A stretch of 64,000 nt of DNA from an uncultured Enterobacteriaceae bacterium (GTDB lineage Bacteria > Desulfobacterota > Binatia > Bin18), in contig CAYTVL010000006.1 in NCBI GenBank assembly GCA_964441775.1, positions 9,312 to 73,311 on the forward strand, given 5' to 3'. The notes below the pieces were generated by a model, which did not search any database, was not told where the DNA came from, and saw only the letters and a list, made by a program, of their open reading frames with translations. Numbering within the stretch: the stretch's first letter is position 1; the number at the start of each line of letters is the position of its first letter. Positions 37,958 through 41,480 of the stretch are shown here, in pieces. A program made the translations under genes and the position numbers.

Positions 37958-40900
37958 ATGAACTGCTCGTCATGCGGCGCTGAGAATCGCGTTGGTCGCA
38001 AGTTCTGCGCCGCCTGTGGTGCGCCCCTCGCTGTGGCCTGTCCAGCCTGTAACGCCCTGAACGAACCTGGTGAGAAGTTCTGTGGCGAGTGCGGTGCGTC
38101 CTTGGGCGGGCAAGTTCCAAGTTCAAAGATCCGGGTTCCAAGTCCTCCCCAACCCCCAACACCTAACATCCAACCCCCAATTTCTTACACACCCAAACAT
38201 CTCGCCGAGAAAATTCTCCAGTCCAAGTCTGCACTCGAAGGCGAACGCAAACAGGTGACTGTGCTGTTTGCTGATGTGAAAGGCTCAATGGAGCTGGCCG
38301 AGCAGCTCGATCCCGAGGAGTGGCATCAAATCCTCGATCGCTTCTTTGCGATTCTCGCTGACGGCGTGCATCGCTTCGAGGGCACGGTGAACCAGTATAC
38401 CGGTGACGGGATCATGGCGTTGTTCGGCGCGCCCATTGCCCATGAGGATCACGCCCAGCGCGCCTGTTACGCCGCGCTGCACCTGCGCGAGGAGATCACC
38501 CGCTACGCCACCGAGGTCAAACGGCGGCACGGCGTCAGCTTCGCCGCCCGCATGGGGCTCAATTCCGGCGAGGTGATCGTTGGCAAGATCGGCGATGACC
38601 TGCGCATGGACTACACCGCGCAGGGGCATACGGTGGGCCTGGCCCAGCGCATGGAGAGTCTGGCTGAACCCAACACCTGTTACCTGAGTGCGGCCACGGC
38701 GCATTTAGTGACAGGTTTTTTCGCCCTCGACGACTTGGGTGCGTTCCAAGTGAAAGGCGTGTCCGAATCAGTCGATGTTTTCGTGTTGCGTGGTGTCGGA
38801 GCACTGCGGACACACTTCGACGCAGCACGGGCCCGTGGATTGAGTCGATTCGTGGGCCGGGAGGCGGACATGCAAGCGTTGGAAGATGCCTTGGCGCAAG
38901 CGCAAGCCGGGAATGGGCAGGTGGTGGGCGTCGTCGCCCCGCCGGGCATAGGCAAGAGTCGTCTGGGGTTCGAGTTCCTTGAACGCTGTCGGGCGCGGGG
39001 ACTGACAGTCAACGTGGGCCACGCCGTAGCGCATGGCAAAAACATCCCTCTCTTGCCGATGTTGGAAGTGTTCCGCAGTTACTATGGCATCACCGAAAGT
39101 GATCCTGACCGCGTAGTGCGCGAGAAGATCGCCGGACGCTTGTTGTTAATCGATGAGAGTTTCCGTGAGCTGCTGCCGGTGGTATTCGAGTTCTTCGGCG
39201 TGAGTGATCCACAACGACCCGTGCCGCGCATGGACCCCGAAGCCAAGCAGCGCCAGTTGTTTGCCGTACTCCGTAAGGTGGTGCGGACTAGCACGATGGA
39301 GCATCCCCTGATCACCCTGCTCGAAGACCTCCATTGGATCGATGCGGGCAGTGAAACTTTCTTGGAGCAGTGGATCGAGGCCACAGCGGGCAGCCGCAGT
39401 CTATTACTGGTGAATTTTCGCCCCGAGTATCATGCGGCCTGGATGAGCAAGTCATACTACCGACAGATTCCTTTAGCGCCGTTGGGAGAAGAAGCGGTAC
39501 GGGCCTTGCTCGATGACCTGCTGGGCCACGATGCGAGTATTGAGGGGTTGGCCACGCTGATTCACGAACGTACCGGCGGCAATCCCTTCTTCACCGAGGA
39601 AGTGGTGCAATCGCTGATCGGGTCTGGCGCGGTCCAAGGGACGCAAGGCAGCTACCGGTTGGTGATGCCGATCACGCAGCTCCAAGTACCGCCCACGGTA
39701 CAGGCGCTACTGTCTTCTCGTATTGATCGACTTGGGGAACGTGAGAAGCACGTGTTGCAAACGGCGGCGGTGATCGGTAAGGAGTTTTCTGAACCGTTGT
39801 TAGCCGGAGTATTATTCCCCCCCCTTTGAAAAAGGGGGGCCAGGGGGGATTTCTTCCGACGCACGACAAATCCCCCTCAATCCCCCTTTGCTAAGGGGAG
39901 AAGCTAACCTGCAAGCGGCGTTGCACGTCCTGAAAGACGCCGAGTTCCTCATCGAGCAGTCATTGTATCCTGTCGCGGAGTATACCTTCAAGCATCCACT
40001 CACCCAGGAGGTGGCCTATCGCTCGCAGTTGCAGGAGCGCAAACGCCGCACGCATGCTGCAGTGGCGCGAGCGATCGAGCAGCACGACGCCGAGCATCTC
40101 GACGAACGCGCTGCGTTGCTGGCCCATCACTACGAAGAAGCCGGGGATCTCGCTGCCGCCGCGCGCTGGCATCGCCGCGCTGCGGAGTGGGTGGGGCTCA
40201 ACGACATCAAGGCAGCGCTGCAACACTGGCAGCGGGTGCGGGAACTGGCCCGGAACGGAGGCGACACTCCGGAAGCAACGGCGCTTACGATCGTGGCATG
40301 TTCTCAGGCGCTCCCCCACGGCTGGCGCTTGGGGGCATCGGCGATGGAATGGGCAGAGCTGTTCACGGAAGGCTGCGCCGCAGCGGAGTGGGCTGGAGAT
40401 TTAGCGTCGTTGGCGACACTCAACGCTACCTACGGCATAGTACGTGGGCTCAACCTAGGACTTGTTCTTGACCTCGTGCGGTATGCTGGCAAGGCAGTCC
40501 GGGTCGCTGACAATTCGGGGGACGCCGCGCTGCGCTGCGGGACATCGTGCGTCCTTGCCTTTGCGCACGTGTACAATGGGCAGCTACGGGAGGCGGAACG
40601 TGTTGCCGACGAAGTCATCGCGTTAGCCCACGACGATGTTCACTTAGGCGTTCAAACCGTGGGTTTCAGTCCCTTGCTGGCGGCGCACCATATTCGTCAG
40701 CGTTGCATTGGATTCACACGTGGCCCAGCCGAGGCGCTGCGTGAACTTCCATGCTTGCGTCAGGTGGCGCTAGATAGTGGCTATCCAGAGCAGGCGCTTT
40801 GGATGTTATTGTGCGAAGGAGAACTGCACTACATCCTCGACAATCTTGGTGAAGGCCGGGGGCTGGTGCGCACAGCGGCGCGATTAGCCGAACCCCTTGG

Positions 40901-41480
40901 CATCGGTAACGAGATTAACGCGGCTCATGTCCTGTGCTCTACTTTTGCCTGTGAGAGCGAGTGGAAATCTCTACTGGACACAGCCGAGGACACGCTCCGT
41001 ACGATGCGTGACCGGGGCGTCCAACGGCTCTATGAACCGACGCTCCTCGCGTACATAGGCATCGCCCAACTCGCACTCGGCAACCTGGAGGCGGGTCGCG
41101 CCGTAGCGGCAGAGGGAGTTATGTTTATGCGCGAGTCACAGAGCGCATGGAACCCGCACTGCTACGCAGTGCTCATTCGCGCCCAACTTGCGATGAACGA
41201 GCCAGCAAGTGACATCACCAGCACGCTCGATGAATACGCGGCGCTGCTGGAATGCACGGGGTTTCACCTGTACGAGGGCGAGCTGCATGAACTGCGCGCG
41301 CAACTGGCTGAACGTGAAGGTCACGTGGCTGAAAAGACCGCCGCCCTGCAACGCGCTCACGAGTGCTACACACGCTTCGGCATGACTGCCCAGGCTGCGC
41401 GGGTGACGACAGGAAAGGCAAGCAAGAAAAATCAAAAGGCAAAGGGCAAAAGTCAAAAAGCAAAAATGCGGAGGACGTGA
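37958..41480 (+). pseudogene. Zinc-ribbon / class III adenylate-guanylate cyclase / AAA(STAND-like) ATPase / TPR regulator, split into two ORFs (37958-39829 and 39888-41480) at a C8 homopolymer
   Basis: Double Zn-ribbon (CSSCGAENRVGRKFCAACGAP...CPACN...CGECG). Cyclase homology domain ('VTVLFADVKGSME' and 'YTGDGIMALFGAP'). P-loop 'APPGIGKSRL'. C-terminal helical/TPR half continuing the same family. Removing one C from the C8 run at 39817-39824 fuses the frames. Confidence 0.7.
39814..39900. repeat. GC-homopolymer palindromic cassette (three stacked hairpins) inside the cyclase/STAND gene
   Basis: CCCCCCCC-TTTGAAAAA-GGGGGG, then GGGGGGA-n21-TCCCCCT, then TCCCCC-TTTGCTAA-GGGGA, directly readable. 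Contains the TGA that ends ORF1. Confidence 0.7.

Follow-up and report, generated by a model that had tools for sequence, protein, structure and literature searches.

The question raised by positions 37958 to 41480 (plus strand) of the stretch presented above is why a gene encoding a cyclase-STAND signalling protein is interrupted exactly at a run of eight cytosines (C8), and whether this interruption belongs to the organism or to the record. All positions refer to the window, that is, the whole stretch of 64,000 nucleotides analysed (contig CAYTVL010000006.1). The explanation that we favour, and to which we assign roughly even chances, is that of one Zn-ribbon/cyclase/STAND/helical-repeat gene that carries an in-frame palindromic insert and, within this insert, a real extra C.

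As recorded, the gene is read in two open reading frames (ORFs), and the removal of a single C results in one ORF of 1,173 aa, in agreement with the ca. 1,170 aa anticipated in a previous sequence-only reading of this DNA. The upstream frame, ORF1 (37958–39829, plus strand, 623 aa), matched in Pfam a double Zn ribbon (residues 3–46), a class III cyclase domain (Guanylate_cyc, residues 97–277) and an AAA_16/STAND NTPase domain (residues 297–484), and its C-terminal part corresponds to the first half of a winged-helix-like module. ORF1 ends at a TGA codon (39827–39829) next to the C8 homopolymer (39817–39824, plus strand), both located where that reading had placed them. The stop codon lies within a TTTGA sequence at the top of the first hairpin of a palindromic cassette, in the context CCC CUU UGA A (39821–39830). 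Six of the eight Cs form the 5′ stem of this hairpin and two are surplus; one C fewer restores the frame. The downstream frame, ORF2 (39825–41480, plus strand), encodes the cassette peptide FEKGGPGGISSDARQIPLNPPLLRGE, followed by the remaining half of the winged-helix-like module and by a helical-repeat C-terminal region. This frame contains no stop codon from 39804 to 41480, stays open for 530 codons, and can be aligned to homologs through its end. Its earliest start codon is a TTG at 39888, within the third hairpin, and no Shine-Dalgarno sequence precedes it. The deletion of one C joins both frames into an ORF reading ...LLAGVLFPPFEKGGPGGISSDARQIPLNPPLLRGEANLQAALHVLKD... or, in a longer stretch across the repaired junction, ...AGVLFPPFEKGGPGGISSDARQIPLNPPLLRGEANLQAAL.... 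Regarding the domains proposed from the sequence, the Zn ribbon, the cyclase and the AAA domain were recovered by Pfam; the TPR assignment is only suggested for ORF2, which gave no Pfam match, by a homolog model that is helical in this part and has 6mfv as its best match in PDB.

The C8 run is the sole G/C homopolymer of at least 7 nt in the window. Homopolymers of at least 6 nt number 50 in the window, and none but C8 falls at an ORF junction; about 40 of the others are located inside long ORFs whose reading frames are unbroken.

Database searches with the repaired protein recovered thousands of homologs, with up to 77% identity to the query, and the best 120 were almost all single proteins of about 1,115–1,150 aa with the same domain order. 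Homologs encoded naturally as two proteins would have spoken against an interrupted gene; the best 120 were found to be single polypeptides instead. The site of the cassette is flanked in these proteins by two conserved blocks (...AAVIGKxFxEPxLxxV and LxxALxxLKxAEF...), with only 2–12 variable residues between them. The closest relatives lack the cassette. Among them, P0262, a full-length protein of 1,159 aa from the Joint Genome Institute (JGI) that shares the 90%-identity cluster of ORF1, is 85–100% identical to the window protein over residues 81–600 and reads ...EPILQRVF DESGSLSLSEAE LQAALHIL... at this position; P0002, P0007 and P0020 are similarly close to the window protein and likewise cassette-free.

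A structural model was obtained with AlphaFold2 for P0105, a homolog 51% identical overall to the window protein (locus L002, on a contig of 68% GC) in which the cassette is present and read in-frame. In this model, based on an alignment of 55 homologs (mean predicted local distance difference test score, pLDDT, of 85.3), the cassette residues (ca. 624–659) appear as a low-confidence excursion, with pLDDT values of 69, 47, 56 and 79 in consecutive blocks of ten residues and values below 50 at 629–635. The excursion is placed between a helix at 616–623 and a helix at 657–669, with a beta-hairpin next to it, and so the model puts the cassette site in a predicted loop inside a winged-helix-like module. 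The C-terminal part of the model consists of all-helical repeats, its cyclase domain gave TM-scores of 0.8–0.9 against solved class III cyclases, and the best PDB fold match for the whole model was the STAND-TPR protein 6mfv; a sequence search of PDB revealed no homolog. Since the best 120 homologs are single proteins and the break falls within a folded module, we conclude that the gene is naturally one protein and that the cassette was inserted where a loop tolerates it.

Class III cyclase-STAND-TPR proteins, of which the mycobacterial Rv0386-type cyclases are an example, share the order cyclase, AAA_16/STAND NTPase, winged helix and helical repeats, with structure 6mfv as reference. The window protein follows this order; it has, in addition, a double Zn ribbon at its N-terminus and carries the palindromic insert. 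This architecture is found in one polypeptide only after repair of the frame, and no LuxR-type helix-turn-helix domain was detected in the protein. The N-terminus of P0262 is wholly unlike that encoded at 37958–38200 of the window and lacks the double Zn ribbon, which suggests N-terminal module swapping among near-identical paralogs. As for gene context, cyclase-STAND paralogs (in L001, L002 and the gene tables) are often found in tandem and adjoining toxin-antitoxin genes (HicA, PemK, PIN, MazE and NTP_transf_2), whereas the window copy sits between a gene for a luciferase-like monooxygenase and pntB.

The cassette comprises 82 nt (39817–39898) and is arranged as two arms around a loop. The left arm (39817–39852) contains hairpin 1, C6TTT-GAA-AAAG6 (39819–39839), followed by CCA and by G6ATTT (39843–39852). 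The central loop (39853–39867) corresponds to the 15 nt CTTCCGACGCACGAC, a segment that is variable in the family of related elements described below. The right arm (39868–39898) is composed of AAATC5, TCAAT and hairpin 3, C5TTT-GCT-AAG4, in which 2 nt of the family consensus AAAG5 are missing. Hairpin 2 (39844–39876) results from the pairing of AAATC5 with G5ATTT, across the central loop. Folding of the single-stranded DNA reproduced the three G/C-homopolymer hairpins that had been described from the sequence, as separate structures (−23.2 kcal/mol, z = −3.6). In RNA, a single nested long hairpin is also possible (−44.9 kcal/mol, z = −2.6) because the left part of the cassette is an imperfect inverse of the right part, with arms 39822–39852 and 39868–39898 being 71% complementary. 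The motif patterns gave 0 matches in 100 shuffles, which speaks against a chance origin, and the window contains one copy only of the element. Searches of Rfam, with the region at a permissive E-value and with the window at the gathering threshold, yielded only chance microRNA-like hairpin matches. An exact 25-mer of the cassette loop had no match in the genome or metagenome contig collections, and thus revealed no sister allele; a BLAST search of the cassette against plasmids found no match, low-complexity masking being a possible cause of the latter result.

The same cassette was found in other members of the gene family. In P0105 it occupies exactly the matching codon position, with the structure GTTT-C6-TTTGAAAAAGGGGGG-CAA-GGGGGGATTT, a 30-nt loop, and AAATCCCCC-ACAAT-CCCCCTTTGGTAAAGGGG, and it is translated in-frame as FPPFEKGGQGGI...IPHNPPLVKGQ. 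The T/C run of this cassette is one base shorter than that of the window (T3C6 vs T2C8), which supports C7 as the in-frame state of the window gene. The cassette is also present in loci L231 and L232, where the central loop is homologous to that of the window; the run is C6 in the cassettes of L002, L231 and L232. A 77-aa query spanning the junction identified five candidates, including P0121, and both P0121 and P0001 (76–78% identical) contain decayed inserts whose ends are still recognisable (FP... and ...PLLKGE). In P0001 (L001, 4775–4915), a different palindromic block of 129 nt is nested between the remnants that resemble the cassette ends, and the frame is still maintained.

The presence of the cassette is patchy and does not track overall similarity. 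L233, a sister of L231, lacks it. Comparison of L231 (5364–7987) with L233 revealed 97.8% identity upstream and 83.5% from inside the cyclase gene onward, along with a deletion of about 900 bp in L231; this difference looks like recombination between tandem paralogs, and both assemblies are indel-rich. Three candidate processes could account for the patchiness: gene conversion between paralogs via the highly conserved flanks, repeated insertion with selection filtering for one tolerant loop, or an insertion of old date that was later lost precisely in some members. The stems are still read as CCC and GGG codons even in a host of 70% GC, whereas the loops have diverged by about 25%; such retention of the stems would indicate that the nucleic acid itself is under constraint or is being homogenised.

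We found that the cassette belongs to a dispersed family of palindromic repeats. The 22-mer AAAGGGGGGNNNGGGGGGATTT was detected in 106 stretches of a viral sequence collection, from hosts ranging from 36 to 72% GC, and nearly all viral copies repeat, in the flanks outside the 22-mer query, the pattern C6 TTT nnn AAA G6, nnn, G6ATTT. The basic unit is a 34-nt module with a 9-bp stem (C6TTT/AAAG6), of which 126 copies were found in the viral collection and further ones among the genome copies. In the doublet form, the module is followed by a spacer of 8–38 nt and by an inverse arm (AAATC5 TMAAT C5TTTnnnAAAG5A). Among species-representative genomes, at least 120 stretches contained doublets, and the overall size of the element, which occurs as singlets and as inverted doublets, is 80–110 nt. 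The family extends over at least eight bacterial lineages as well as phages. Among the hosts of doublets are Beta- and Gammaproteobacteria, Desulfobacterota, Geobacter, Methylomirabilota, Binatia, Acidobacteriota, Nitrospirota, Ignavibacteria, Lysobacter, Nitrotoga and Glaesserella. Among the matches listed, several metagenome-assembled genomes (MAGs) had copies on four or five different contigs, and some loci had many. These observations on dispersal (106 viral and at least 120 genome stretches), together with the absence of the cassette from the closest relatives, bear out the proposal that it is an inserted element, similar to repetitive extragenic palindromic (REP) sequences or to MITEs (miniature transposable elements with inverted repeats), that now encodes a linker. 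A literature search by motif strings, covering 8 million papers, found no description of the repeat; all matches were unrelated, the HIV polypurine tract and synthetic terminators being examples, and the family is thus apparently undescribed so far.

The family also shows other arrangements. In L180 (2620–3280; Halothiobacillus sp. MAG STB_50), at least four doublets are repeated head to tail every 150 nt or so, unlike the isolated copies observed elsewhere, and widely spaced inverted arm pairs also occur. Tandem arm pairs were looked at as possible autonomous elements.

Residence inside genes is a recurrent feature of this family. Among the matches listed, 13 doublets are located in ORFs open for at least 100 codons on either side. 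Pfam domains flank the element on both sides in an AcrB-type transporter (one match covering residues 1–1055), the HrpA helicase of Glaesserella australis, a PBP1C protein (two copies), an SNF2/PLD protein and a solute-binding protein of the SBP_bac_5 family. In L224 (3070–5829, minus strand), the two doublets of a PBP1C-like ORF are separated by about 120 nt; each is read through, and their place is between the transglycosylase domain and the transpeptidase domain. A perfect 36-nt singlet was located in the annotated coding sequence of the portal protein of the Mu-like Haemophilus phage SuMu (NC_019455, 15687–15722; L234, 1501–1536), and near-identical copies of this singlet are found in viral contigs of 42–44% GC (L007, L009, L025 and L069). 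Three loci considered as possible split genes were rejected: L137 consists of distinct genes for HlyD and ABC, whereas no domains were found to support a split gene in L178 or L208.

The element is thus a palindromic repeat residing in-frame within genes, a kind already known. According to the account given in PMC10969869, the Rickettsia palindromic elements (RPEs; Ogata et al. 2000) are palindromic repeats of about 100–150 bp inserted in-frame in protein genes of Rickettsia. As in the case of RPEs, the element described here is found in-frame inside unrelated genes, adds a peptide at a site where the fold tolerates it, and recurs in many genes; in contrast, it has 80–110 nt, consists of G/C-homopolymer hairpins and is distributed over many phyla and phages; judged by hosts and length, it would fall outside the RPE families described from Rickettsia. 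REP and REPIN elements (REP doublets forming hairpins) are hairpin singlets and inverted doublets that fold as a long hairpin and are mobilised by REP-associated tyrosine transposases, RAYTs (PMC3116915, PMC3337134). The element shares with them the short hairpin module, the inverted doublets with a short variable spacer and the long-hairpin fold. On the other hand, REPs typically contain a GTAG/CGTC tag (PMC3733652), and GTAG, CTAC, CGTC or GACG was found in no more than 3% of the arms, which begin instead with YT followed by C6. REP families are, in addition, usually lineage-specific and extragenic, whereas the present family crosses phyla and is often intragenic. No RAYT gene was seen among the window ORFs examined, in an inspection that included no search aimed at RAYT. 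Finally, intragenic enterobacterial repetitive intergenic consensus (ERIC) sequences, BOX elements and Anabaena MITEs generate in-frame fusions (PMC10969869). The cassette resembles these MITEs in its small size, its non-autonomous nature, its inverted-repeat ends and its capacity for read-through when located in a gene. Terminal inverted repeats are present, both at the ends (YT-C6... and ...G5-A) and over the whole arms; no target-site duplication was evident at the element flanks, and no parent insertion sequence was identified.

Taken together, these data lead to the following account. A mobile palindromic repeat of 82 nt, a REPIN-like inverted doublet of the 34-nt module, is located in the short, length-variable loop between two helices of the winged-helix-like module. 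The insertion is compatible with the frame and contributes about 28 Pro/Gly-rich residues as a floppy surface loop. In the record, the run is C8, one base too long; the frame is thereby shifted, translation ends at the TGA codon in hairpin 1, and the remaining 530 codons are left without a ribosome-binding site of their own. If the extra C is real in the sampled population, as we are slightly inclined to believe, it would have arisen very recently through slippage in a G/C run prone to mutation, and might still be polymorphic. A recent event is indicated by the intact state of ORF2, which is open for 530 codons and aligned to homologs throughout. Such a mutation would knock out one member of a large redundant family of paralogs rather than constitute an evolved regulatory device.

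The remaining question is whether the eighth C exists in the organism. We consider a real, recent frameshift to be an evenly balanced proposition. Its main competitor is that the eighth C is an error of the sequencing or assembly consensus, so that the organism, with C7, makes the 1,173-aa protein from the same gene with the same insertion anatomy; this alternative is a serious one, which we regard as having somewhat less than an even chance. The two readings meet on the evidence from other records of the locus. ORF1 (623 aa) and ORF2 (530 aa, from the TTG start) were each recorded solely from one NCBI contig of 207,608 bp, which also includes the neighbouring genes. The truncated product expected at the edge of a contig from the Logan assembly described below (38363–39829) was absent from the protein index first queried. 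Neither the C7-repaired product nor a C10 product was found in a collection of 15 billion protein sequences, nor was any fragment of 100% identity that reads through the tract; this absence of a C7 product speaks against an error, with the proviso that the collection may contain only one assembly of the locus. The protein sequences of pntB and of the luciferase-like monooxygenase were found to be identical on two contigs of an independent assembly (Logan, k = 31) of run SRR12313479; over 7.4 and 7.6 kb (15 kb together), the DNA of these contigs agrees with the window at 100% identity. The flanks of the gene are therefore base-perfect, and no homopolymer-linked ORF breaks occur in the rest of the window, both of which argue against a consensus error.

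Several observations weigh against the reality of the extra C. The two Logan contigs end at 38392 and resume at 41436 of the window, leaving the tract uncovered and with no second witness; this break around the gene suggests a difficult region, and it would fit a situation in which paralogs, or further copies of the element, in the metagenome have k-mers in common with the gene. A one-base change in the sole long G/C homopolymer, placed within a very stable GC hairpin, is a classic consensus artefact, and the C8 tract is the most error-prone single position of the window in a gene that is otherwise intact. Moreover, the verified copies of the element inside genes elsewhere are read in-frame, and no split gene could be verified among the ca. 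120 doublets listed when long ORFs ending in the element and followed by long ORFs leaving it in another frame were considered. L231 and L232 were rejected as proof that cassettes often break frames, since both assemblies contain many other indels.

The slight inclination towards a real frameshift is based on the clean state of the other homopolymers, the base-perfect flanks, the variation of run length in the family and the redundancy of the paralogs, as well as on the separate recording of ORF1 and ORF2 with no repaired allele in the collection. Across the family, the leading run is C6 in 75% of the copies, C7 in 14% and C8 in 3–5%, with a range from C5 to C9, and such differences between copies are consistent with slippage. 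The gene belongs to a large paralog family, often tandemly duplicated, in which the loss of one copy should cost little.

If the extra C is real, it might still be more than an accident. The sequence-only reading had offered a slipped-strand phase-variation switch. Such a switch would imply a population of both C7 and C8 cells, with the signalling protein being reversibly turned on and off. Homopolymer contingency loci are known from host-adapted bacteria (Neisseria, Haemophilus and Campylobacter) and typically affect surface or restriction-modification genes. As in such loci, the length of a G/C run sets the reading frame in the window gene, where a change of one base in a run of eight toggles between the stop at C8 and the 1,173 aa at C7, and run lengths from C5 to C9 do occur among family copies. 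The long run is not conserved in relatives, however: the cassettes of homologous genes have C6, which is also the mode of the family, and C8 is confined to the 3–5% mentioned above. The tract is the only long one of G/C in the window, is located in the middle of the gene and was brought by a repeat element, the gene encodes a cytoplasmic member of a large paralog family, a class atypical of contingency loci, and no frame-broken copies inside genes were verified elsewhere among the ca. 120 doublets listed. We therefore did not retain the switch, which we regard as improbable. A broader version would be that of a mobile contingency tract, in which an undescribed family crossing phyla, by virtue of its G/C-homopolymer stems, delivers hypermutable frameshift tracts into tolerant loops, the C7/C8 toggle reversibly switches the cyclase-STAND protein, and the recurrence of the cassette at one loop in paralogs of only 51–57% identity reflects the spread and retention of the switch; we judge this proposal to be just as improbable.

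Production of the full-length protein from the C8 sequence by recoding, either through a +1 slip at CCC CUU UGA (of the type known for prfB, encoding release factor 2 (RF2), or with tRNA-Pro on CCC-C) or through transcriptional slippage, appears very unlikely. The prfB +1 site contains CUU UGA, a Shine-Dalgarno-like stimulator and the UGA C context. The window shares with it the codons CUU UGA, which form the core of the site in RF2, and the continuation in the +1 frame, which is the shift required, and a hairpin is located downstream. In contrast with prfB, no Shine-Dalgarno-like element is present 3 nt upstream, where the pyrimidine run UUAUUCCCCCCC is found, the stop context is UGA A and not the weak UGA C, and the arrangement is not conserved in homologs, P0105 reading its cassette in-frame with no shift at all. 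Least probable of all, to the point of being hardly credible, is a locus of two natural genes whose products cooperate as a split protein: both ORFs are long, intact and separately annotated in the source record, but all 120 best homologs are single polypeptides, the split falls inside the folded winged-helix-like module, and ORF2 has no Shine-Dalgarno sequence and a first start codon, TTG, buried in a hairpin stem.

Returning to the one-gene explanation with an in-frame insert and an extra C, the frameshift itself would be a routine matter, with at most one paralog lost, or else an error in the record to be corrected. The wider interest is in a simple G/C-hairpin repeat that is found from Acidobacteriota to Pasteurellaceae and in phages, is repeatedly read through in real proteins, and occurs in several members of a family of STAND signalling proteins at a single loop. 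If the family is confirmed, the RPE phenomenon of selfish DNA residing in proteins would extend well beyond Rickettsia, and annotators should expect homopolymer frameshifts and spurious ‘PPFxKGG’ peptides at such sites. The family would also provide a natural test case for the upkeep of palindromic DNA within coding sequence.

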